This document shows, one piece after another, positions 2,420 to 36,417 of a stretch of DNA of 64,000 nucleotides (positions are counted from its first letter, which is position 1; the number at the start of each line of letters is the position of its first letter). The notes beneath the pieces are model-generated. The model had not been told where the DNA came from, did no database searches, and worked only from the letters and a program-made list of their open reading frames with translations. Made by a program: the position numbers and the translations under genes. Origin of the DNA: a virus. The stretch lies in IMG/VR virus record IMGVR_UViG_646564589_000005. One strand, 5' to 3'.

Positions 2420-3175
2420 TTAAGCTGCCAGTCGTGACACCCACGTCTCTCTTTTAGTAAATGGTAAGATATGACTGGTTTCATTAAACAATAATGATAA
2501 TTGTTGAATTTGATCACCTATCGAATCGTTATCAACAACAACATATCTATTATTCAAGTCTGAATTGGAGTTTTTAAGATCAATTAGTTTGCCAAGCAAG
2601 GAATAGGCACTGTTCCAACTACCGTTTTTTTTCACGCTGGATGTGAAGATATACTTAGGTGTTGGTGTGTTAATCGTCACTGGTATAACTATTTGATGCC
2701 CACTCATACCCATAACTGAACCTCGTAAAGAAATAATATCTTTTAGTTCAGTATGATATAAAAAGTTTATAACTTGACCTTCAAATTTTTCTGCTTGCAC
2801 TGGTTGGTGCCAATCTTGTGATAAAGTGGATGCTATGATTCCAGCTCTAATAACGCCAGAAGTTACGGAGCCAACAGTATCTTCTGTCGCCCAACCAATA
2901 ATCTCACCTCTTTCATTCAATTCAGAGCCTTGGTTCTTTAGGAAGGCTCTGATTTCTTCGATTCTTTTTTTTGTAAGTGAGATTCCTCTGGCTTCCATGT
3001 TCATTAAAGTATCACACCTGTCACTTACTAAATACTTACCATTTATCTCTTTGACAAAGGCACCAACATGCTCGCCATCATCACAATATGTGAAGGGGCT
3101 AATTATTCTCAGTAGCTCAGAGCCAATTGGGTGGCATTCGAACCCTAGATTTGATATCACAGTTGAGCACATCAT
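2420..3175 (-). CDS. DUF1828-like protein with a restriction-endonuclease-like C-terminal region
   Basis: SPF..DDGE.....V.SD..DTL motif and G.SGH..IPV segment recognised from DUF1828/DUF1829 proteins. Confidence 0.7.
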   Translation of the reverse strand: MMCSTVISNLGFECHPIGSELLRIISPFTYCDDGEHVGAFVKEINGKYLVSDRCDTLMNMEARGISLTKKRIEEIRAFLKNQGSELNERGEIIGWATEDTVGSVTSGVIRAGIIASTLSQDWHQPVQAEKFEGQVINFLYHTELKDIISLRGSVMGMSGHQIVIPVTINTPTPKYIFTSSVKKNGSWNSAYSLLGKLIDLKNSNSDLNNRYVVVDNDSIGDQIQQLSLLFNETSHILPFTKRETWVSRLAA

Positions 3176-3738
3176 AACGGTAATCCTATTTGTCCAGAAT
3201 CATTTTCTAAAGGTAATGGCAGTTTTCCTATACAAGTAATATTTAGTTTCTCACAGAAAAAATTCCAATATCCAAGCAAATCATCTGGCTTTATGTTGCT
3301 TTTGATTGGAAATCCTACTCCACTATAATGCCCTGCTTCTTCGTAGTAAATATGATAATGAGCGCCTAATACATACTCTTTAAAGTCTGGGTGGTCTATT
3401 CTGTAACGATTTGTATGTCCATCAAATGGATATGTATCAACAGCAAAAACTCGTTTTTTATTATAAAAAGCTACGATATTTATCTTTGGATAAACCGGAT
3501 CTCCTTCCCGTTTGGGTTCATGATCTGGTTTCCACTGGATAAGAACAGATAACCCTTGAATAGGTATACCATCAGAGTCTGTTGGGAGCAGGCTCATTTG
3601 TAACCATAAAAAAGGTTTATTTGGGGGTGGTTTCTCCCCCCATCTAACACCAGTAAAATCAACCTGCTTTTTACAGTAAAGCACATTATCAACTTCTGCC
3701 TGACTAGGAAGGTAATCTGTAGATTTTGCCACTGTCAA
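3172..3738 (-). CDS. DUF6978-like protein, partner of the DUF1828 gene (TTG start)
   Basis: HTN...GAHYHIY motif; 4-nt overlap with the downstream gene. Confidence 0.6.
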   Translation of the reverse strand: MTVAKSTDYLPSQAEVDNVLYCKKQVDFTGVRWGEKPPPNKPFLWLQMSLLPTDSDGIPIQGLSVLIQWKPDHEPKREGDPVYPKINIVAFYNKKRVFAVDTYPFDGHTNRYRIDHPDFKEYVLGAHYHIYYEEAGHYSGVGFPIKSNIKPDDLLGYWNFFCEKLNITCIGKLPLPLENDSGQIGLPL

Positions 3739-3944
3739 TTATCCATTTTATCTATCGCTCTCTAGAATGTGTCATCAGAACACTGAGGCTTAACCATTTT
3801 ACCCTACACAATCCTGTTAACCTTTTGATCGAAAATTGTCTAATTTGTGACACAAGGTGAAAGCCGCTCCTCGCAGCCTATATTAAAATTTATGACATAG
3901 TTAACATTTCAAATAGTGATTGTTTACTATTGATATATGTTTTG

Positions 3945-4391
3945 TTAACTTGCTTTACTGCCACGTTTTGCCAGCATTTCCGAAAAAATCGCATCAAAAT
4001 GTGCCGCTTTTGTCTGCATTTCTTTCAAAAAACGCTTAGCTTCTTCTGCCGGCAACCTATCAAATAGTTCTAATAGTTCTTCTTGTTCCTTAGTTAGATT
4101 TCTAACTAGTGGTTTAACTTCCCGTGTTTTCTCTGGGCGAGCGTTATCGCTGGTATTATCTATACCATGCTGTAGCCAGACGATATCGACATTAAGGTAA
4201 TCAGCGAGAGCATTCATCTTTTCCTGTCTAGGTAAAGATTCCGAATTAAACCATTTGCTCACCGCCTTAGATGACACCCCTAAAGCTCTGACTATCGCAG
4301 CTCCCCGACCATGTTCATTTAGACCAGCCCGCTCACAGGCTTGCGCCAGCCGCTGGGAAAATTGTTCGCGCGTTTTTTCTGTCTGTACCAT
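3945..4391 (-). CDS. cI: CI-type repressor, HTH-XRE, no S24 peptidase domain
   Basis: HTH ALGVSSKAVSKWF; divergent from cro; flanked by operators. Confidence 0.9.
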   Translation of the reverse strand: MVQTEKTREQFSQRLAQACERAGLNEHGRGAAIVRALGVSSKAVSKWFNSESLPRQEKMNALADYLNVDIVWLQHGIDNTSDNARPEKTREVKPLVRNLTKEQEELLELFDRLPAEEAKRFLKEMQTKAAHFDAIFSEMLAKRGSKAS

Positions 4392-11954: not shown

Positions 11955-12236
11955 AATTATCGAAGGTCGCTTAGGTGGCCTTTTTTCTTTTAGGCTGCCA
12001 ACTGCCGTGTAAGTGTTGGGTGGGTTGCTGGGTTACCTATTCCAGCCGACAGCAAACTCTCATAAATTGGCAGGATCACAATTTAACTCAAAAAAACCAT
12101 GCAGGGTAATACCTGCTAAATGTTACGCATTGCGTATCTGCCGTCGCCAGTTCGGGGCGGCATCTCCTATTAACTCAACTCACAGGGGCGACCATAGCTC
12201 ACCCCACGGACGCCCATTGTTCAAATGGGGTGGAAT

Positions 12237-12575
12237 ATGAAGATGAAAGAGAATCCTGATGTATGGGTACACCTCGGAGAGTGGCTCATATCGGTAAGAG
12301 AGCAAGGCATTTGGGCAACTCTTGCCGGAACGATGGCATTTTTTCGCGGTCGCTATAACGGTGGCGGCTGGGTAAAGGTTTCAATCGACGCTTTTATGTG
12401 TGCCATGTTCGCCTGGTTCATTCGTGACGTATTAAATTTCATGGGTCTGAATCCTGACCTGGCCTACATCGGCAGTGTGGTGATTGGCTATCTCGGTACA
12501 GACTTCATCGGTCAATTGCTGCGTAAGGCGGCAGAGAAAAGAGCGGGGGTATCCTCTGATGAAAATCAGCAATAA
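12237..12575 (+). CDS. S: Lambda S-family holin with Met-Lys-Met dual start
   Basis: ATG AAG ATG; [10 protein letters not shown] motif; hairpin at 12213-12229 over the RBS. Confidence 0.92.
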
Positions 12576-12993
12576 AGGACTGGAATTCATTCAGCAATGG
12601 GAAGGCCTGAAACTGAAAGCCTACCCTGACCCGGCAACAGGTGGCATCCCGTGGACGATTGGTTATGGCCATACGAAAGATGTGAAGCCCGGTCAAGTAA
12701 TCACAGAGCAGCAGGCCGAAGCTTTCTTGCATGATGACCTCATACCCGCTTACGCCACACTGGAGCGATTGGTTAAGGTGCCACTGACTCAAGGTCAGTT
12801 TGATGCCTTGTGCTCCTTTATCTTCAATTGTGGTACCGGCAATTTCTCCGGTTCTACTTTGCTAAAGAAAATCAATGCCGGTGATTATGCAGGCGCAGCG
12901 GCAGAATTTCCCCGATGGAATAAGGCGGCTGGTAAGGTGATGAACGGCCTGACTCGGCGTAGGGCATCTGAACAACAGATGTTTTTGTCATGA
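12559..12993 (+). CDS. R: Endolysin, GH24 lysozyme
   Basis: [20 protein letters not shown]; QFDAL.SF.FN.G. Confidence 0.95.
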
Positions 12994-13463
12994 AACTCAC
13001 ACTGACCCACTACACGATCATTGTTCTGTTTGTTACTACAGGCATAACCTCATTCGGAAGCTACCATTACAGTACTGAGTATGAGAAACAGAAAGAGGCT
13101 AATGGGCGTCAGGCAACTGAAATCCAGCAACTGACCGACACCCTAAACTACCAGAACACGCACATTGATATGCTGCATGAGATGGACACCAAGCACACTC
13201 AGGAACTCGACAATGCCAAATCTGAAATTGATACTCTTAGGGCTGATGTTGCCGCTGGCCGTCGCAAGTTGCGCATCAAAGCCATCTGTCCCGTGCCTGA
13301 AACCACTTCCTCCCGCAGCATGGTCGATGCAACCACCGTCGAACTCTCTGGAGAAACTGGATCAACTGTTCTCGATATCCGAGAAGACATCATCAACGAC
13401 CTCGCAAAATTAAGATATTTGCAGGATTACGTTAATACTGAATGTTATGAGGTGAAGAAATGA
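12990..13463 (+). CDS. Rz: Rz i-spanin
   Basis: N-terminal TM; LRADVAAGRRKLRI motif. Confidence 0.92.
   Translation: MKLTLTHYTIIVLFVTTGITSFGSYHYSTEYEKQKEANGRQATEIQQLTDTLNYQNTHIDMLHEMDTKHTQELDNAKSEIDTLRADVAAGRRKLRIKAICPVPETTSSRSMVDATTVELSGETGSTVLDIREDIINDLAKLRYLQDYVNTECYEVKK
13213..13413 (+). CDS. Rz1: Rz1 o-spanin lipoprotein nested in Rz
   Basis: Lipobox AVASC; Pro-rich; alternate frame. Confidence 0.88.
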   Translation: MPNLKLILLGLMLPLAVASCASKPSVPCLKPLPPAAWSMQPPSNSLEKLDQLFSISEKTSSTTSQN

Positions 13464-26025: not shown

Positions 26026-26778
26026 ATGGCAAATTGCCCGGTAGAAACCAATAAACTTATTGGCCGTAATGCCATTATCCGTATTGCACATGGTTGTCCT
26101 GATGCAGTACCCGATCAATCAGCGTTTTTTCGGATTGGTGCATTGACCACCAAATCATTTGATCTGTCACCTAACACACTGACCTCAGAGGCGGATGATT
26201 CAAAGGGGCTGGTGGAAAGTGTCGTCACCAGCATGAACTTAACCATCTCATTTGATGGTGAGTATCGTAAGCGGGACAAGAAAGATGATTTCGGTCCATT
26301 GCGATTGTTGCAGGAAATACCGAGAGAGGTTCAGGCTGGCCGTCAGCCCTCGTATTGGGTACAGATGGATTTTACAGGCGAGAATGCCTTCGTTCTGCAA
26401 GGCTACATGGTCTTCACGTCGTGGTCATCTAAGTTCGGTGCTAACGAAGTGGCTACGTATTCCGGTGAGTTAAAAATATCCGATGCCGATACGGTTGAAT
26501 GGTTGATCGAAGAAGTCGCGGTACAGTCAATCACCGCTAATCCTTCGTCATTGACTGTAGCCGTAGGAAAAACCGGTTCTTTTGTGGTTAATTTCAATCC
26601 TGCTGATGCGACCAATAAAAACTATACCGTGACATCTGATAAAACCAGCGTTGCTACAGTGAGCAAGATAGGTAGCGTGGTGACAGTGAAAGGGGTTGCA
26701 GAAGGCTCGGCAAATGTCACCGTCACTTCCGAGGATGGCAGTAAAGCCGCCAAATGTGCGGTAACGGTAACTGCTTAA
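26026..26778 (+). CDS. Major tail tube protein with C-terminal Ig-like (Big_2) domain
   Basis: C-terminal V.F.PADATNK..TVTSD..VATV...G...G.A.VTVTSEDG motif. Confidence 0.9.
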   Translation: MANCPVETNKLIGRNAIIRIAHGCPDAVPDQSAFFRIGALTTKSFDLSPNTLTSEADDSKGLVESVVTSMNLTISFDGEYRKRDKKDDFGPLRLLQEIPREVQAGRQPSYWVQMDFTGENAFVLQGYMVFTSWSSKFGANEVATYSGELKISDADTVEWLIEEVAVQSITANPSSLTVAVGKTGSFVVNFNPADATNKNYTVTSDKTSVATVSKIGSVVTVKGVAEGSANVTVTSEDGSKAAKCAVTVTA

Positions 26779-30176: not shown

Positions 30177-30428
30177 ATGAAGAAAGTTAGAGATATCAGT
30201 CCGTACAGCATAAGGATGCCTGACGAATTAAAGGAAAAGCTGACCGATAGAGCGAGGAAGAACGGGCGCTCCCTTAATTCTGAAATGGTCATGATCTTAC
30301 AAACTGCTGTAGACGAAGAATCAAAACCAAAGAACATAGACGAACTTGTGCAGTTAGAGTCTGAGAAGTTCAAAGAGTTGTTTATGAAAACAATCAAGCG
30401 GATGTATGAAGGGAAAGACAATGAATAA
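30177..30428 (+). CDS. arc: Arc/Mnt-family ribbon-helix-helix regulator
   Basis: PYSIRMPDELKEKL...A.KNGRSLNSE.V.IL. Confidence 0.92.
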   Translation: MKKVRDISPYSIRMPDELKEKLTDRARKNGRSLNSEMVMILQTAVDEESKPKNIDELVQLESEKFKELFMKTIKRMYEGKDNE

Positions 30429-30822
30429 TGAAAGAATAGCGTTTATTCACCCGTATAATCCTGATAGCGATGAACAGCCATTGCTTGTTTTTGAGTGCGA
30501 AGAATTACCATTTATTGTTGATTTTCATTTCAAGGTTTTCATGATTAATTTAAAACATGATGAGCCGTATTACATACAAAGCCAGTTGTTTAGGGTTACA
30601 GATTCGAACCAAACAGAAGTGTGTGATAAAAAAGGCTTTTGGATGAAAACAGAAGATACGCAGGGGAAGCCAGATGATATCGCTGCATCTATCAGGCTCA
30701 GTTTTCTCAAGTCCATGTTTTCATATGAGGGCACGTATTTCGTTAGGACTGGCATTCTAGTCAATAACGAGGAAATTGATGGCAATGAGGCCTACTTTAA
30801 AGTGAGTCTTGTAAATGAATAA
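30421..30822 (+). CDS. 133-aa beta-rich hypothetical protein (module 1 partner)
   Basis: Coupled to arc and to the downstream gene by 8-nt overlaps. Confidence 0.65.
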   Translation: MNNERIAFIHPYNPDSDEQPLLVFECEELPFIVDFHFKVFMINLKHDEPYYIQSQLFRVTDSNQTEVCDKKGFWMKTEDTQGKPDDIAASIRLSFLKSMFSYEGTYFVRTGILVNNEEIDGNEAYFKVSLVNE

Positions 30823-31390
30823 AATTACAGTTGATGCTAGATTAGAATCAAGAAACCGATTCAAGGTGGTTAAGCCTCATGAAAACTCAGATGATTATGA
30901 ATCACAGCAATCTAAAATTGGTGGCAGTGGTGGAGGTGGCGGTATGGAATCACGAGTAGCAAGACTTGAATCAGACGTTGAACATATCAAAACTACCATG
31001 AACGATATGAAGTCTGACCTGAAAACAGTTACCGGTGATGTCGGCACAATGAAGACTGACGTTGCTGTTATTAAGCAAAAATTAGACGCAATCGACAGCG
31101 CTCTATCTAAGAAACCAAGCGAAGATCAGCTTGATGCTAGATTAACAAAGACAGAGAACAGATTTGACTCTAAGCTCACAGAAGTAGAGAACAGATTTAA
31201 CTCTAAATTCAAAGAGATGGACAATAAACTTGATAATGCAATATCTCGAATTGAGTCATCTCTTGAGAAAAATGCATTATCTTTTGATGGTAAGTTGAAA
31301 GATGCACGTTTAAGTTTAATCCTCTGGATTTTAGGTCTGCCTGGCCTATTGTTTGTCATCTATCGACTATACATATCATTTTTAGGCTAA
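30815..31390 (+). CDS. Coiled-coil protein with C-terminal TM and internal SD-ATG at 30944
   Basis: GGGG-MESRVARLE motif, heptads, hydrophobic C-terminus. Confidence 0.75.
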   Translation: MNKITVDARLESRNRFKVVKPHENSDDYESQQSKIGGSGGGGGMESRVARLESDVEHIKTTMNDMKSDLKTVTGDVGTMKTDVAVIKQKLDAIDSALSKKPSEDQLDARLTKTENRFDSKLTEVENRFNSKFKEMDNKLDNAISRIESSLEKNALSFDGKLKDARLSLILWILGLPGLLFVIYRLYISFLG

Positions 31391-31531
31391 AGCTCCATTC
31401 ACGGGCTTTATGCTGTTTACGGTTAAATAGTGTGAAATTGCTTGATAATGAGGGGCTGTTCCAGTTGAACAGAATAGAAGAGAAATTTTAGAGAAGTGCT
31501 TGGCTGATAATGGTAAATAACCGAGGTAAAT

Positions 31532-32074
31532 ATGTCAGATATTTCAATACAGGGCGAACCAAGAGATTATTATAAAATTCTCATAAAAAGTGACGATAGC
31601 GAATGTTATCAGGCCAACAGGCGCACAATAAGAGAAATAATGAAAGTTATAAATGGAGCTACGGAAAAGTATCAAGAGAATGGTGATTCTGATACGGTTA
31701 TTCAAATGCATCAAGATTATTATGATGCTTTTGATGTTTTCATTCTTAATGAGCCTGACGATGCAAAGATAGCTATGCGTAGCGTGCTGGCAGAAGAAAT
31801 GAAAGCCAAAGAATGTGAGCTTAATATTGGCGGTGGTTCTATACCAAAAGTAATAGGTTTTCTATTAACATTTATTGGCCTATTTGTTTGCTTTTATGCT
31901 TGCACAATGAATATTTCAGTTGGGTATTATGACAAGGTTATTAATGCTGGATTAGTTGCAGATCGGCAGCTTTATATGACGGCTGGAGTGGGAATCACCA
32001 TTATTGGCTCGTTGGCAATTTTATTTTCGTTGCTTTTGGGTAAAATGGGAAAACGATTTATAGCAAGACAATAA
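31532..32074 (+). CDS. Membrane protein with two C-terminal TM segments
   Basis: Hydrophobic VIGFLLTFIGLFVCFYA and VGITIIGSLAILFSLLL; GAGG RBS; terminator 32126-32153. Confidence 0.75.
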   Translation: MSDISIQGEPRDYYKILIKSDDSECYQANRRTIREIMKVINGATEKYQENGDSDTVIQMHQDYYDAFDVFILNEPDDAKIAMRSVLAEEMKAKECELNIGGGSIPKVIGFLLTFIGLFVCFYACTMNISVGYYDKVINAGLVADRQLYMTAGVGITIIGSLAILFSLLLGKMGKRFIARQ

Positions 32075-32170
32075 AATTATCAATCCGTCACGCTTTGAAA
32101 TTATATTCCCTTATATGTACCAAATAACCCTGCCACATGGCGGGGTTTTCTTTTTTAAGGAACCGACAAA

Positions 32171-35100
32171 ATGGCAGATCATCAGGTAGGTAATATTGTT
32201 TACCAAGTATCAATGGATGTAGCGCAATTGCTCACTGCCCAGCGCCAAGTAAATGATAGATTGGATGGTTTAGAACGCGGAATGGGTAGGGCAGACATGG
32301 CTACAAGAAGTCTAGGGAAGTCAATGTCATCATTATCTATGGTAGCATCAAGTCTTATTTCAGCGCTCTATATCCAACAAATTGCCAAATATGCAGATAG
32401 CTGGACTACTGTAAACAACAAATTAGTTAATTCCAAAAAGGCACATGAAGAGCTTGGTGAAGTGACTGCGCGTGTATTCGATATCGCTCAAAGGTCAAGA
32501 ACTAGCCTAGAAGCCACAGCTACACTGTATGGTCGTCTTGAGAAAGCTACTCGCTCATTAAATATGGGCGCTAGAGACTTAGGTGATATGACTGAAACAA
32601 TAAATAAAGCGCTTATTGTGTCAGGTGCGACAGCGGCAGAATCATCCAGTGTACTTGTTCAGTTATCGCAAGCTTTAGCAGCAGGTGCATTACGTGGCGA
32701 GGAATTCAACTCCGTTAGCGAGAACGGCATAAGGATAATGCAAGCCATTGCTGACTATCTTGGTAAAGATATCGGTCAATTAAAGGCAATGGCAGCGCAA
32801 GGTAAATTAACCTCCAAAATAGTTGTCGCTGCAATGAAAGCAAGTGCAGATAAAATCGCCAAAGAATTTGCTAAAACTACCTCCACGATAGAACAGGCGT
32901 TCGTGGTCGCTAACAATAACGTCACCAAGTTCGTTGGTGAGTCTAGTAAGGTAAGTACAGCAGCGAACATATTCAATAAATCATTGGTGAATTTGAGCGG
33001 AAATCTGGATGTATTTGCTACCGCTATCGGCATGGTAGCACTAGCGGCTGTCGCTAAATTTAATGGCGCACTGGCAGGTAAAGTGAGAGCTATGCACACA
33101 TCCACGCAAGCTTCTCTGGCTGATGCTAGGGCATCACACGCCAACGCATTAGCAACAGAACATGCAGCTATTGCTGCTAATCGTAAAGCACTTGCGGATA
33201 GAGAACAGGCTATTTTGGCCTATATGGTTGCAGAAGCGGAACTTAAAGCAGCGGCTGGTACTAATGCTGAGAGGATAGCGACTGATAATCTCGTCATTGC
33301 TAAGTCTAGGTTAGCAATAGTCAACCTAGAAGTGGCAACTACTGGCAAAGTAGCAGCGGTAGCTACTGCTGCTGTTGGTGTTGCCGCTAAAGAGGCATCT
33401 GTGGGCTTGAGATTGCTGGGATCTGCATTCGCTTTTGTGGGGGGATGGTTCGGCCTTATCACCATCGCAGCAGGGGTTTTTTACTATATGTATGAAAAAA
33501 CCAAACAGGCATCAGACGGTGCGAGGGAATATGCGAAAAATTTAGGCGATGTTAAAGAAAAACTCAAGGATTTGAGTGTGGAAGAGGTTGCTGCTGAAAT
33601 TGATAAGATGAATAAATCAATCAAGCAGATGGGAATAGACGCCAAAAACGCAGAGCAAAAAATTGATGAATTGCAGAAGGAACTCGATAAATTCAAAGAC
33701 CCTAAAAAAAGAGCGATAAAAATAGCCTATTACACGAGTAACGGGCTTGATAGCGATTTTGCCGAGCAAGCTGTTACTGATGATGAGAAACAAGCGCAAG
33801 AGGCTCTAACGCAAGCTAAAGCAGATCATGTACGCATAACAAGAGAGCTGAACAACGCCAAGGCAAATTCGGCGAAAATGTCCGATATCGGAAACAAAAA
33901 AATAGCGGAAACAAATAAGTTAATTTATGAGCAAGGTAAAAAGGAAATCCCTAATAACGTTAAGGAATGGGAGAATGCAGGGAAAACATACGGGGAGGTA
34001 GTGGATTTAATAAAAGTTAAACTTAGTAGCCTTGGTATCGCAATTAAATCCGTAGGCGAAGATACAAAAGAAGTTAATAAGAAAATGGAAGGCATGATTA
34101 AGAATGCCGAAAGGGACTTGGAAATAGCATCGATACCTGATGAAAAAGGCAAACTGATAAAAGAAGCTGAGTTTGAAGCTAAGGATGCGGGTGCAAACTC
34201 AGGAGATACTGAAAAGTACGTTAATCTGGTTGTTAAAAAACAAGAAGTTGATGAAGCAGCCGAGAAACGAAAAAAGGCCGCTCAGGAGGCTGAATCAGCA
34301 GCTAAGAAAGCTCAAGATGAGGCTGAAAGTCGTTCTAAACAGATTGCAAACTCACTTAAAGATCAACGCGAAGAACTTGAACGCCTCAACACTGGCTACG
34401 AAGAAAACAGCCTTGAGATGGCTAAATATGATGCTCGAAAGGCGATGCCGGAGGGTTCTAGTGAACTCCAGATAAAAGCAGCGGAAGATCTTGCTGCAAG
34501 AATTTGGCTGGCTAACCAAGCAAAAGATGACAAAATTAAAGCCTCTGAACTCGATGTTGCAGCCCATTCCGCAAAGCTTCGGAAGAAAGAAGAAGATGAC
34601 CTCACGAGGATGTACGATAAGCACCTCATCGACGAAAAAACGTTCCAAGAGCAGATGAAAGCAATTAAGGACAAGGCCGAAGAAGAGGAACGACAACGCA
34701 AAGTCAATGAAGCCGTATCGCCTGCCATGAAAACCCTTGGGGAATTCGACCCAGTACAAAACCTCATTAATGAACATGATAGAAAAATAGCAGCTATCAC
34801 AGATTTCGAGCAGAGGCATACCGAGTTGAAAGAACAGGCCGAGGCAGCCAGAGCCGCTATCGAAAAGAAGTATCAAGAAGACCTTGCTAACGCCCAATGG
34901 GAACAATGGAAAGGCCAGAATGAGATGTATCAATTTCTGGGTGATGCTATGGAGTCATTGGGACAACGCTCTGCCAATTCCATAACAGGGCTGCTAACCG
35001 GCACTCAAAGCGCCAACGATGCCATGCGAAACCTCGCGTTAACCATCACTAACGAGGCGGTGTCTGCTTTGGTTCAAATGGGGATGCAGCAAATCAAGAA

Positions 35101-35602
35101 CATGGTCATCGGTAAAGCTGTTAACACTGCGGCTGCGGCATCGGCTGTAGCAACAGGCGCGACGATTACTACGGCAATGGCTCCTGCTGCTGCGGCTACC
35201 AGTGTAGCAACAATGGGAACTGCGGCGACTTTCGGTCTAACTGCAATGGCGGTGGCAATACCTGCAATGATCGCATTAATGGGCGCTCGTAAAAATGGTG
35301 GGCCAGTCAGTCCGAACGGTGCTTATCGCATTGGTGAAGACAATAAGCCTGAAATATTCAAAGCGAATAACGGTCATCAATACATGATACCGGGTGACAG
35401 GGGGCAGGTGATTAGTAATAGGGATATGGGGAAAGGTGGTAGTGGTGGTATAGTTATTAATCAGGTCAATAATTTCAATGTCAGTAATAATGGTCAATTT
35501 ACAGCCGAAAATGCTAGGATGTTATCTGGTTTTGTTAGGCGCGAAGTCTATGATGTCTTGGCTAATGAGACGCAGCGTGACGGTGGTTTACTTAATCAGT
35601 AA
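32171..35602 (+). CDS. H: Tail tape measure protein
   Basis: 1143 aa, Ala-rich; QLSQAL.AG.LRGEEFNSV.E tape-measure N-domain. Confidence 0.95.
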   Translation: MADHQVGNIVYQVSMDVAQLLTAQRQVNDRLDGLERGMGRADMATRSLGKSMSSLSMVASSLISALYIQQIAKYADSWTTVNNKLVNSKKAHEELGEVTARVFDIAQRSRTSLEATATLYGRLEKATRSLNMGARDLGDMTETINKALIVSGATAAESSSVLVQLSQALAAGALRGEEFNSVSENGIRIMQAIADYLGKDIGQLKAMAAQGKLTSKIVVAAMKASADKIAKEFAKTTSTIEQAFVVANNNVTKFVGESSKVSTAANIFNKSLVNLSGNLDVFATAIGMVALAAVAKFNGALAGKVRAMHTSTQASLADARASHANALATEHAAIAANRKALADREQAILAYMVAEAELKAAAGTNAERIATDNLVIAKSRLAIVNLEVATTGKVAAVATAAVGVAAKEASVGLRLLGSAFAFVGGWFGLITIAAGVFYYMYEKTKQASDGAREYAKNLGDVKEKLKDLSVEEVAAEIDKMNKSIKQMGIDAKNAEQKIDELQKELDKFKDPKKRAIKIAYYTSNGLDSDFAEQAVTDDEKQAQEALTQAKADHVRITRELNNAKANSAKMSDIGNKKIAETNKLIYEQGKKEIPNNVKEWENAGKTYGEVVDLIKVKLSSLGIAIKSVGEDTKEVNKKMEGMIKNAERDLEIASIPDEKGKLIKEAEFEAKDAGANSGDTEKYVNLVVKKQEVDEAAEKRKKAAQEAESAAKKAQDEAESRSKQIANSLKDQREELERLNTGYEENSLEMAKYDARKAMPEGSSELQIKAAEDLAARIWLANQAKDDKIKASELDVAAHSAKLRKKEEDDLTRMYDKHLIDEKTFQEQMKAIKDKAEEEERQRKVNEAVSPAMKTLGEFDPVQNLINEHDRKIAAITDFEQRHTELKEQAEAARAAIEKKYQEDLANAQWEQWKGQNEMYQFLGDAMESLGQRSANSITGLLTGTQSANDAMRNLALTITNEAVSALVQMGMQQIKNMVIGKAVNTAAAASAVATGATITTAMAPAAAATSVATMGTAATFGLTAMAVAIPAMIALMGARKNGGPVSPNGAYRIGEDNKPEIFKANNGHQYMIPGDRGQVISNRDMGKGGSGGIVINQVNNFNVSNNGQFTAENARMLSGFVRREVYDVLANETQRDGGLLNQ

Positions 35603-35620
35603 CTAGCTTGTATGAAAACG

Positions 35621-35636
35621 CTGTAAATAAAATCAG
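35621..35636. promoter_or_regulatory. LexA (SOS) box-like CTGTAAATAAAATCAG
   Basis: CTG-N10-CAG with an AT-rich spacer in the intergenic region before module 2. Confidence 0.45.
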
Positions 35637-35699
35637 TAACACGAATCCAATAACTGATGCTTAAATTGTGTAATAAAATTTCTGTTATTGGAGTGGGTG

Positions 35700-36062
35700 A
35701 TGGATACTGAACCGAAGAGAATCGAAAGTAAAGAGAGGAAACTTTGGGAGAAATTTAAGTTGGTTACTGCTTTAAGTTTTTCTCAATTCTTAAGAAGTAG
35801 AGGGATACCCGCTATATCATGCGTAATGTGTGGCAATAAGGATGTTAGATTTCCTTCAATGGCTGACGGGACAGATGAAGAGTTCTATCTCATTCCGATA
35901 GAAGTTAACGAGGTATCCATTAAAAGTAAATATAATATAGCCAAATATAAATATAGGGGCATTTGTCAAAATTGTAGTCATGAAATGTATTTCAATGCCT
36001 ATCATGTTATTAACTGGCTAGAAAATGGTGGCAAGCAGAGTACGGAAGGTAAGAATGGCTAA
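35700..36062 (+). CDS. Zn-ribbon protein (CVMC...CQNC), module 2 partner
   Basis: Two CxxC pairs; GGAG RBS. Confidence 0.75.
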   Translation: MDTEPKRIESKERKLWEKFKLVTALSFSQFLRSRGIPAISCVMCGNKDVRFPSMADGTDEEFYLIPIEVNEVSIKSKYNIAKYKYRGICQNCSHEMYFNAYHVINWLENGGKQSTEGKNG

Positions 36063-36363
36063 GCATTTAGAGAATGTAATCCCTATATTTAAAGATACTC
36101 CCTTGCCAGAAAATGAAACCAGTCACTCTGGAGGGAATGGTGGAGGTGGAGAGATGGAAACAAGAGTTAAAAAGTTAGAAGAATATGTACATTCCATCAA
36201 AGTAGATCTCGCTGTCATCAAATCAAACTATGCAACAAAAGAAGATATTGCATCGGTGAGAGTTGAAGTACAAAAAGCTATTGCAAACCAAACTAAATGG
36301 ATAGCTGCGACCCTCATAGCCACAGCGAGTATTGCAATTGCCGTATCTAAATTGATTTTTTAA
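36055..36363 (+). CDS. Coiled-coil protein with C-terminal TM and internal SD-ATG at 36154
   Basis: GGGGE-METRVKKLE motif; paralogue of 30815-31390; terminator 36381-36406. Confidence 0.75.
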   Translation: MAKHLENVIPIFKDTPLPENETSHSGGNGGGGEMETRVKKLEEYVHSIKVDLAVIKSNYATKEDIASVRVEVQKAIANQTKWIAATLIATASIAIAVSKLIF

Positions 36364-36417
36364 TTTATTCTGAAAGCTAAAAAAGCCTCCCTGCGAGGCT
36401 TTTTTTATGGGTTAAAT

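Follow-up and report, generated by a model that had tools for sequence, protein, structure and literature searches.

A putative second start in the glycine linker of two paralogous prophage membrane proteins that flank a tape-measure gene

The DNA analysed here (the window) comprises 64,000 nucleotides of the IMG/VR virus record IMGVR_UViG_646564589_000005 and is a lambdoid siphophage prophage, located in a host genome of 4.23 Mb with 45% GC. Two small modules, designated module 1 and module 2, are placed on either side of its tape-measure gene. In each of them, the gene of a soluble partner protein (partner 1 or partner 2) is followed by the gene of a membrane protein (gene 1 or gene 2), formed by an N-terminal extension, a Gly linker, a coiled coil and a C-terminal transmembrane (TM) helix. 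The locus raises the question of whether the Gly codons of the linker also spell a ribosome-binding site, from which a second and shorter protein is started, and what role such a gene would have in a prophage. The comparison of homologous loci makes it very probable that the internal second start is used.

The internal start in the glycine linker

The modules flank the tape-measure gene as described in the original prediction for this locus, and all the sequence features reported there are present (Table 1). In both modules, the membrane protein gene overlaps the stop codon of its partner gene by 8 nt, and GGAGGT is found 6 nt before an in-frame ATG. This ATG corresponds to residue 44 of protein 1 and to residue 34 of protein 2, with 43 and 33 amino acids upstream, and begins the peptides MESRVARLE and METRVKKLE, respectively. 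The two membrane proteins are homologous (BLASTP, 40% identity over 55 amino acids, spanning the linker and the internal start) and both match phrog_3556, phrog_6324 and phrog_6136. The direct comparison of partner 1 with partner 2 detected no relation. The view of the modules as paralogous membrane proteins associated with unrelated soluble partners is thereby borne out.

The conservation of the site was followed in three sets of homologues: 25 proteins from a word search, 127 loci from genome and viral contig collections, and the best 150 of 3,078 matches to a family profile. Codon statistics refer to unique loci, namely 93 homologous loci and, for the analysis of the Shine-Dalgarno (SD) sequence, 82 unique upstream contexts. 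In 62 of these 82 contexts, a GGAGG precedes the conserved in-frame ATG by 4-10 nt, compared with 27.7 expected when each peptide is resampled with the local synonymous codon usage. GGAGG and the start are separated by 7 nt in 51 loci and by 4 nt in six. Counting backwards from the start, GGA represents 70 of 83 Gly codons (84%) at codon -4, and 2/22 at codon -1, 11/63 at codon -5, 8/36 at codon -6 and 7/51 at codon -8 (a share of 9-22% at these four). Codon -3 is GGT in 52 of 80 cases, which extends the SD match to GGAGGT. The synonymous Gly codons therefore do not vary freely among the homologues; the GGA at codon -4 is fixed and the neighbouring Gly codons are variable. In the window's own genome, GGAGG occurs in just 23.8% of the runs of at least three Gly residues, and GGA accounts for 12.3% of the first codons in Gly-Gly pairs. 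The homologue HK544_040 contains two Gly residues only (DDGGDDM), yet their codons read GGA GGC.

The start position itself was compared among the best (about 150) of the 3,078 profile matches: 128 have a Met, six proteins begin there and 16 are without Met, mostly with a Leu instead. The Leu variants use TTG in 11 of 11 cases, against 16-17% of the Leu codons in the same loci, and the Val variants use GTG in two of two. GGAGG is placed 7 nt upstream in 12 of these 13 variants. At Val-Leu junctions the Val is GTG and the Leu is TTA, so that the start coincides in position with the Met found in M-L-E variants. The RNA around both internal sites is not more folded than shuffled sequence (z from +0.5 to +1.2), and no hairpin of the lambda sdi kind, whether conserved or stable, was obtained when the RNA at both internal starts was folded; this lack of excess structure suggests that the initiation site is accessible. 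The internal site is probably the stronger of the two, because it combines a perfect GGAGGT with optimal spacing and no structure.

Four observations weigh against this interpretation of the linker. GGA is also raised at codons -2 (29/65, 45%) and -7 (27/63, 43%), which the reading of a start site alone does not explain; the two rises may correspond to a second and weaker SD-like element or to a codon-pair effect. The GGA at codon -2 is followed by Asp or Asn codons, so that GGAGA or GGAAA results. A canonical GGAGG is lacking in about one quarter of the loci, whose linkers are of the PPHDGG-, GGTSGG- or GGGGGGG-type. Many of the loci are related and, consequently, the raw counts overstate their independence. 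Finally, the Met occupies a hydrophobic heptad position, which by itself could favour Met or Leu. The exclusive use of TTG and GTG makes this preference an insufficient explanation, and is explained by a start codon. Overall, the fixed GGA at codon -4, the spacing and the TTG and GTG variants argue strongly, at the comparative level, for an independently initiated short form besides a translationally coupled long form, as was originally proposed. Both isoforms would then be made.

Partner proteins, extensions and genomic context

The long form also looks real when the loci are compared. In the loci that were examined, the frame has no interruption between the partner's stop codon and the internal start (19-64 codons). 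The start of the long form usually overlaps the partner stop by 8, 4, 11 or 1 nt, with the 8-nt overlap in approximately 30 of 80 loci, and many of these starts have their own SD. An xN[VIL] motif is found near the N-terminus of the extension in 17 of 25 genes paired with a Zn ribbon versus seven of 33 paired with a beta sandwich. Near-identical coiled-coil/TM cores are paired with different partner families, the extension switching with the partner, and single TM types pair with several partner types. The partner and the extension consequently behave as one cassette and the coiled-coil/TM core as another, both joined at the Gly linker.

The variability of the soluble partner, anticipated from the two modules, extends to the homologues. 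The commonest partner family is the beta sandwich of module 1 (33 unique loci), followed by the Zn ribbon of module 2 (25 unique loci); the others are one small HK544-type family and 17 singletons. Natural fusions of partner and effector were sought, and no long N-termini containing CxxC were found. The length of the coiled coil is clearly plastic in the family. In a homologue from Photorhabdus laumondii (P0006), a 22-amino-acid coiled-coil repeat, ARLTKSENRFDSKFTEVEGKFD, has undergone a four-fold tandem expansion; the C-terminus of this protein is also different, without a TM helix and carrying PF28217. In addition, a genome of the same family contains two identical copies of a homologue (G021:C2:900927-901292 and 1221178-1221543), and in each of them the matching stretch is interrupted by one in-frame TAG.

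The nearest protein homologues in the word search belong to Photorhabdus, Xenorhabdus, Morganella and Providencia, and the profile search yielded 336 representatives at E<=1e-10. Homologues are present in lambdoid prophages, including Stx1 and HK544-type phages. The gene upstream of the partner encodes a CI-like repressor in 27 of 62 unique loci according to PHROG (Peptidase_S24 in 20 of 62 according to Pfam), an Arc-like protein in four and a tape measure in three. Downstream neighbours include N-like antiterminators in five cases. The order in phage HK544 is PRM, cI, gene 041, gene 040 and PL, which places the module in the position of lambda rexAB. This slot next to the phage repressor is the usual site of phage-exclusion genes. 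In Salmonella phage S107, a Zn-ribbon-type pair (orf25/26) is placed before the tape measure. The HK544-type pair occurs in 93 of 5,426 complete E. coli genomes, where the Prokaryotic Genome Annotation Pipeline (PGAP) describes both genes as 'hypothetical protein'.

Searches for a described relative gave little. Against GenBank phages, tblastn retrieved 14 phage records with gene 1 and none with partner 1, and the region itself gave no match in megablast or blastn. In PADLOC-DB 2.0 there was no specific match, gene 1 having only low-scoring coiled-coil matches to PbeC, JetC, LmuB and ZorA, and neither the partners nor the HK544 and S107 homologues matched any entry. NCBIfam returned nothing specific, an Atlas search returned 'hypothetical protein' clusters only, and literature searches found no description of the family. 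The family is widespread, unnamed and unannotated.

The coordinates of the two modules and of the tail genes around them are given in Table 1. Module 1 is a three-gene unit, since an Arc/ribbon-helix-helix (RHH) gene that the original prediction had missed is joined to partner 1 by a stop/start overlap, ATGAATAA, identical to the one between partner 1 and gene 1. The Arc/RHH protein is the probable autoregulator of this operon. Partner 1, with an alternative ATG at 30406, is modelled by AlphaFold2 (AF2) with nine strands and a predicted local distance difference test (pLDDT) score of 94; the fold search gave generic matches only (E-set/RhoGDI-like, Ig-like sandwich). The N-extension of protein 1 is polar, contains 35 amino acids and carries the peptide RFKVVKP (30857-30877), which is RLRVVKE or RLRLVQP in relatives (P0018, L020). 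RFKVVKP and RLRVVKE resemble the C-terminal LRVVK peptide of SspB, its tether to ClpX.

Table 1. Features of the two modules and of the surrounding tail genes in the window
Feature	Position	Strand	Description and evidence
Major tail protein	26026-26778		PHROG match
Arc/RHH regulator gene	30177-30428	+	Pfam Arc 1.5e-12; PHROG Arc-like families
Partner 1	30421-30822	+	133 aa, soluble, all-beta, Ig-like sandwich; phrog_5893 1.1e-27; AF2 model
Coiled-coil/TM protein 1, long form	30815-31390	+	191 aa; open reading frame (ORF); phrog_3556 4.5e-28; 25 close homologues
Partner 1/gene 1 stop-start overlap	30815-30822		8 nt, ATGAATAA
Gly linker, gene 1	30920-30943
Internal initiation region, gene 1	30932-30946	+	GGAGGT 30932-30937, 6-nt spacer, ATG 30944; sequence, family-wide conservation
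Predicted short form, gene 1	30944-31390		148 aa
C-terminal TM helix, protein 1	~31307-31375
Tape measure	32171-35602		between module 1 and module 2
CTG-N10-CAG site, palindrome-like, LexA-box-like	35621-35636	+	CTGTAAATAAAATCAG; alignment with four Xenorhabdus loci
Partner 2	35700-36062	+	120 aa, helical hairpin and CxxC..CxxC Zn ribbon; phrog_4293 1.1e-17; AF2 model
Coiled-coil/TM protein 2, long form	36055-36363	+	102 aa; phrog_6324 7e-16, phrog_3556 1e-14
Partner 2/gene 2 stop-start overlap	36055-36062		8 nt, ATGGCTAA
Gly linker, gene 2	36130-36153
Internal initiation region, gene 2	36142-36156	+	GGAGGT 36142-36147, 6-nt spacer, ATG 36154; sequence, family-wide conservation
Predicted short form, gene 2	36154-36363		69 aa
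C-terminal TM helix, protein 2	~36298-36360
Intrinsic-terminator-like hairpin	36380-36407	+	GCCTC/GAGGC stem, A run before, T run after; read from sequence
Minor tail protein M	from 36418		Pfam Phage_min_tail

In module 2, partner 2 (alternative TTG at 35688) is modelled with a pLDDT of 87 and its four Cys are invariant across 23 homologues; the fold search gave weak TFIIS/NrdR/YgiT-type ribbon matches only. Protein 2 has an N-extension of 25 amino acids with an NVIPI motif and a short coiled coil. In the four Xenorhabdus loci, the sequence conservation of the cassette begins exactly at the CTG-N10-CAG site, upstream of which L016/L058 diverge. This site may serve as a LexA-type operator or belong to the promoter region, and module 2 may be under SOS control. 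At the other end, the terminator-like hairpin closes the module before gene M, although a simple terminator scan did not list it.

RNA data are available as Logan contigs. In two RNA-seq studies the contigs cover module 2 alone, and the flanking tape-measure and M genes are near zero in those runs. The first contig (742 nt, run X1) matches 35636-36377 end to end with approximately 98% identity and starts at the last base of the CTG-N10-CAG site; the second (580 nt) matches 35697-36276. As contigs prove neither transcript ends nor transcript levels, they are a weak hint of an autonomous transcript of module 2; regions of the window that no contig covers are not evidence of silence. A related prophage with different cargo is present in runs X3 and X5. 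In runs X1 and X2, longer RNA contigs with other flanks contain a homologue of the linker and of the initial coiled-coil part of gene 1 (window positions 30919-31065, approximately 92% identity), and its contig depth is 926 in an insect-metagenome oligo-dT run. A paralogue in a related strain may be well expressed in insects.

Module 1 belongs to an accessory island placed between the major tail gene and the tape measure, which contains a minus-strand KilA-N antirepressor gene, the Arc-like gene, module 1 and the gene of a 180-amino-acid membrane protein. The latter (31532-32147 region) has C-terminal TM helices and a weak phrog_8032 match, stands directly before the tape measure, in the position of the HK97 gp15 exclusion moron, and is followed by a strong terminator at 32126-32147. 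Downstream of gene M, the L-, K-, I- and J-like ORFs are found. In the minus-strand region 2420-4388, the slot after the prophage's repressor-like gene (3945-4388) holds another two-gene cassette, phrog_1960 and phrog_2017. The prophage carries, in this way, three candidate accessory modules: module 1, module 2 and the post-repressor cassette.

A candidate exclusion system and its alternatives

Both modules can be read as copies of one widespread prophage accessory ('moron') cassette with a dual start and a membrane-acting role in exclusion or abortive infection (Abi). As a whole, the chances of this reading are about even. In the proposed mechanism, the first gene (gene A) would provide a small soluble partner of a variable family, and the second one (gene B) a tail-anchored membrane protein with a partner-specific N-extension, the Gly linker, the coiled coil (E.RVA+LESDV.HIK) and the C-terminal TM helix. 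The first start of gene B, coupled to the stop codon of gene A, would give the long form. The second start, with its SD GGAGG[T] spelled by Gly codons 7 nt before the ATG (TTG or GTG in some relatives), would give the short form, containing the coiled coil and the TM helix only. The short form could be a membrane-acting effector of XhlA-like architecture, or a dominant regulator. The long form would co-assemble with it through the common coiled coil, and its N-extension would dock the cytoplasmic partner, acting as a sensor or an inhibitor. The ratio between isoforms and the state of the partner would subsequently decide the perturbation of the membrane, by which incoming phages would be excluded or their infection aborted. 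Partner and N-extension are exchanged together, as a single cassette, between different coiled-coil/TM cores, and the Gly linker is where they are joined.

The molecular steps of this scheme, namely a short-form effector, joining through the coiled coil, docking of the partner and membrane perturbation, are put forward tentatively from the sequence, with somewhat less than an even chance of being right. A defence or exclusion function, suggested by the genomic context, is likewise possible rather than probable. It is a little more doubtful that the modules represent a new prophage exclusion/Abi family in which one gene encodes both the effector and its tethered regulator via the start in the Gly linker, and in which specificity is given by the swapped partner and its docking peptide. 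The proposal of an exclusion or Abi candidate, made when the modules were first noticed, gains from the common adjacency to repressor genes, and none of the known defence families was matched; the phenotype that it implies is a predicted one.

Some points are unfavourable to the interpretation as an exclusion cassette. Both modules of the window sit in the tail region and not beside cI. The contigs cannot fix the ends or the level of a module 2 transcript, and the use of either start, as well as any toxic, membrane or phage-directed role, is judged from sequence comparison. Furthermore, deep relatives from Alphaproteobacteria and Steroidobacteraceae metagenome-assembled genomes (MAGs) start at the coiled coil and have no extension. 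The dual start is, for this reason, a feature of a clade and not of the whole family, and the short form looks ancestral. The N-extension seems to have been added later, with the old initiation site retained.

Among the other explanations, the one that survives best, although unlikely, is superinfection exclusion at DNA entry. The modules would block the genome injection of related siphophages without killing the cell, as HK97 gp15 and P22 SieA do, and the partner and the isoforms would tune the assembly or spare the prophage's own phage. Both window modules and S107 orf25/26 indeed flank a tape-measure gene. Morons beside this gene can encode such proteins, HK97 gp15 being the example in the passage of PMC11436027 that cites Cumby et al. 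2012, and SieA is an inner-membrane injection blocker (PMC10883804). However, a tape measure upstream is a minority situation in the family (three of the 62 loci), most of the protein is predicted to lie in the cytoplasm, and known injection blockers are not characterised by a cytoplasmic partner, a coiled coil or a dual start.

A lysis accessory is less likely still. Here the membrane proteins would serve the lytic cycle of the phage itself as XhlA-like holins or holin partners, and lysis would be timed by a holin/antiholin pair made from the two starts. Holins such as lambda S105/S107 typically have dual starts, and the window modules are placed inside the late region. XhlA is the only Pfam family with a matching architecture, and the XhlA of PBSX was reported as essential for lysis (PMC6834076). 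The scores are, however, far under the gathering cut-off: XhlA (PF10779) gives 13.6 bits with gene 2 (cut-off 34.7, E 0.077), in a sub-threshold match where the short form spans positions 1-64 of the 67-position profile. Eight of 23 relatives match at E<=0.05 (best 4.6e-5), all of them below threshold, and XhlA is absent from the best 25 of the 65 Pfam matches of gene 1. The original prediction had loosely compared these proteins with XhlA and DUF1640; the layout of XhlA is recognisable, and both families score below their gathering cut-offs, DUF1640/CCDC90-like (PF07798) with 14.9 bits against 33.5, as one of many non-specific coiled-coil matches. The location also disagrees with a lysis role. 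The prophage already has a complete holin-endolysin-spanin cassette of its own at 12225-13463, 18 kb away from the modules, and the homologues are mostly found after a repressor gene and not beside endolysins. Module 2, in addition, has its own terminator and a separate covering RNA contig.

It is improbable that a single product is relevant, with GGAGG and the start kept as the relic of an ancestral short gene, as a recombination joint of the cassettes or as a translational pause site. The coiled-coil start of the deep relatives, which makes this start ancestral, the role of the linker as joint between shuffled cassettes and the fit of both Met and Leu to the heptad position agree with it. 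Nevertheless, decay would be expected of a relic. What is found is a GGA kept at codon -4 (84%) among mostly variable Gly codons, a fixed and optimal spacing of 7 nt, and the replacement of Met by TTG or GTG only; a recombination joint or a pause site, on the other hand, needs no start codon. An addiction or regulatory module, in which the membrane protein stabilises the prophage or modulates its induction, either as a small toxin of the membrane or by tethering a regulatory partner there, is given equally little chance: the RHH gene coupled upstream of module 1, the weak YgiT/MqsA-type matches of the Zn ribbon, the CTG-N10-CAG site at the beginning of module 2 and the repressor-adjacent position, which fits lysogeny control, are in its favour, whereas no match to a known toxin or antitoxin family beyond RHH was found in Pfam and NCBIfam, the partner families are too diverse for one regulatory target and the rexAB-like position is typical of exclusion genes.

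Comparison with known systems

If both isoforms are made, the linker of these proteins is an unusually clear natural case of an SD encoded in a flexible Gly linker and yielding an N-terminally truncated isoform. The sequence suffices to recognise the internal start, as no codon other than ATG, TTG or GTG occurs at its position. The case further suggests that functional internal starts in small membrane proteins of phages are overlooked by annotation pipelines. As a large and unannotated family in the classic rexAB slot of many lambdoid prophages, these modules offer a concrete candidate for a defence or exclusion system of prophages that is new and has its regulator built in.

The closest analogy for the dual start is the lambda S105/S107 gene, in which one membrane protein is read from two in-frame starts. 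The two products differ at the N-terminus and have the oligomerising and membrane parts in common. In S105/S107, two codons separate the starts, the product has three TM helices and the gene is part of the lysis cassette. The membrane proteins of the window would also have two in-frame starts and N-terminally differing products. In contrast, their putative starts are separated by 33 and 43 codons, which encode a partner-specific peptide and a Gly linker, there is a single C-terminal TM helix, and the gene is not beside an endolysin. For the holin/antiholin logic that the original prediction had invoked, the conserved SD, spacing and ATG/TTG/GTG codons argue strongly that two in-frame starts would be used; the distance between the starts, which in holins is 1-3 codons, and the lack of a neighbouring endolysin do not agree with a holin/antiholin gene. 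A second analogy is SieB/Esc of phage P22, a prophage exclusion gene in which, as reportedly described by Ranade and Poteete in 1993, initiation at an in-frame codon within the gene yields a shortened product, and this modulates the full-length protein. No SieB family was present among the Pfam matches listed for the modules, and SieB is not known to have a coupled partner gene, a Gly linker or a coiled coil. SieB is an abortive-type exclusion system (PMC10883804).

The position of the homologues and their two-gene organisation are those of lambda RexA/RexB. These are two co-oriented genes directly after cI, encoding a cytoplasmic and a membrane component that act on the membrane to stop infection (PMC11436027). 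Homologous pairs occupy the slot directly downstream of the CI gene in HK544 and in the repressor-adjacent loci counted above. The two copies in the window, in contrast, are not after cI, a slot that here holds another cassette. There is no RexA/RexB homology in Pfam, NCBIfam or PADLOC. RexB is polytopic, compared with the single tail-anchor TM helix found here, and Rex is not known to have a dual start.

The layout of the predicted short forms, in which an N-terminal coiled coil is followed by a C-terminal TM helix, is that of XhlA, a small protein reported to be needed for lysis in PBSX (PMC6834076). XhlA differs in being a Gram-positive protein of the lysis cassette with no described N-extension or partner. 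HK97 gp15 is, in the passage of PMC11436027 that refers to it, a membrane-protein moron beside the tape measure of a lambdoid siphophage and expressed from the prophage; by this description it is a single gene with a different type of protein, unlike the present modules. The Tai (tail assembly inhibition) systems are also set apart by their description, as single genes usually placed upstream of the packaging module (PMC11364771), a layout unlike that of the modules; phage HK544 appears in the work on Tai as a test phage only.

Dual-start membrane proteins are already known in prophages, and the present family is unnamed and has a distinctive architecture. By analogy, its logic resembles that of lambda S105/S107 and of P22 SieB/Esc, as the latter is reportedly organised, and its position resembles that of lambda RexAB, whereas membership fails on the defining features of each of these systems.

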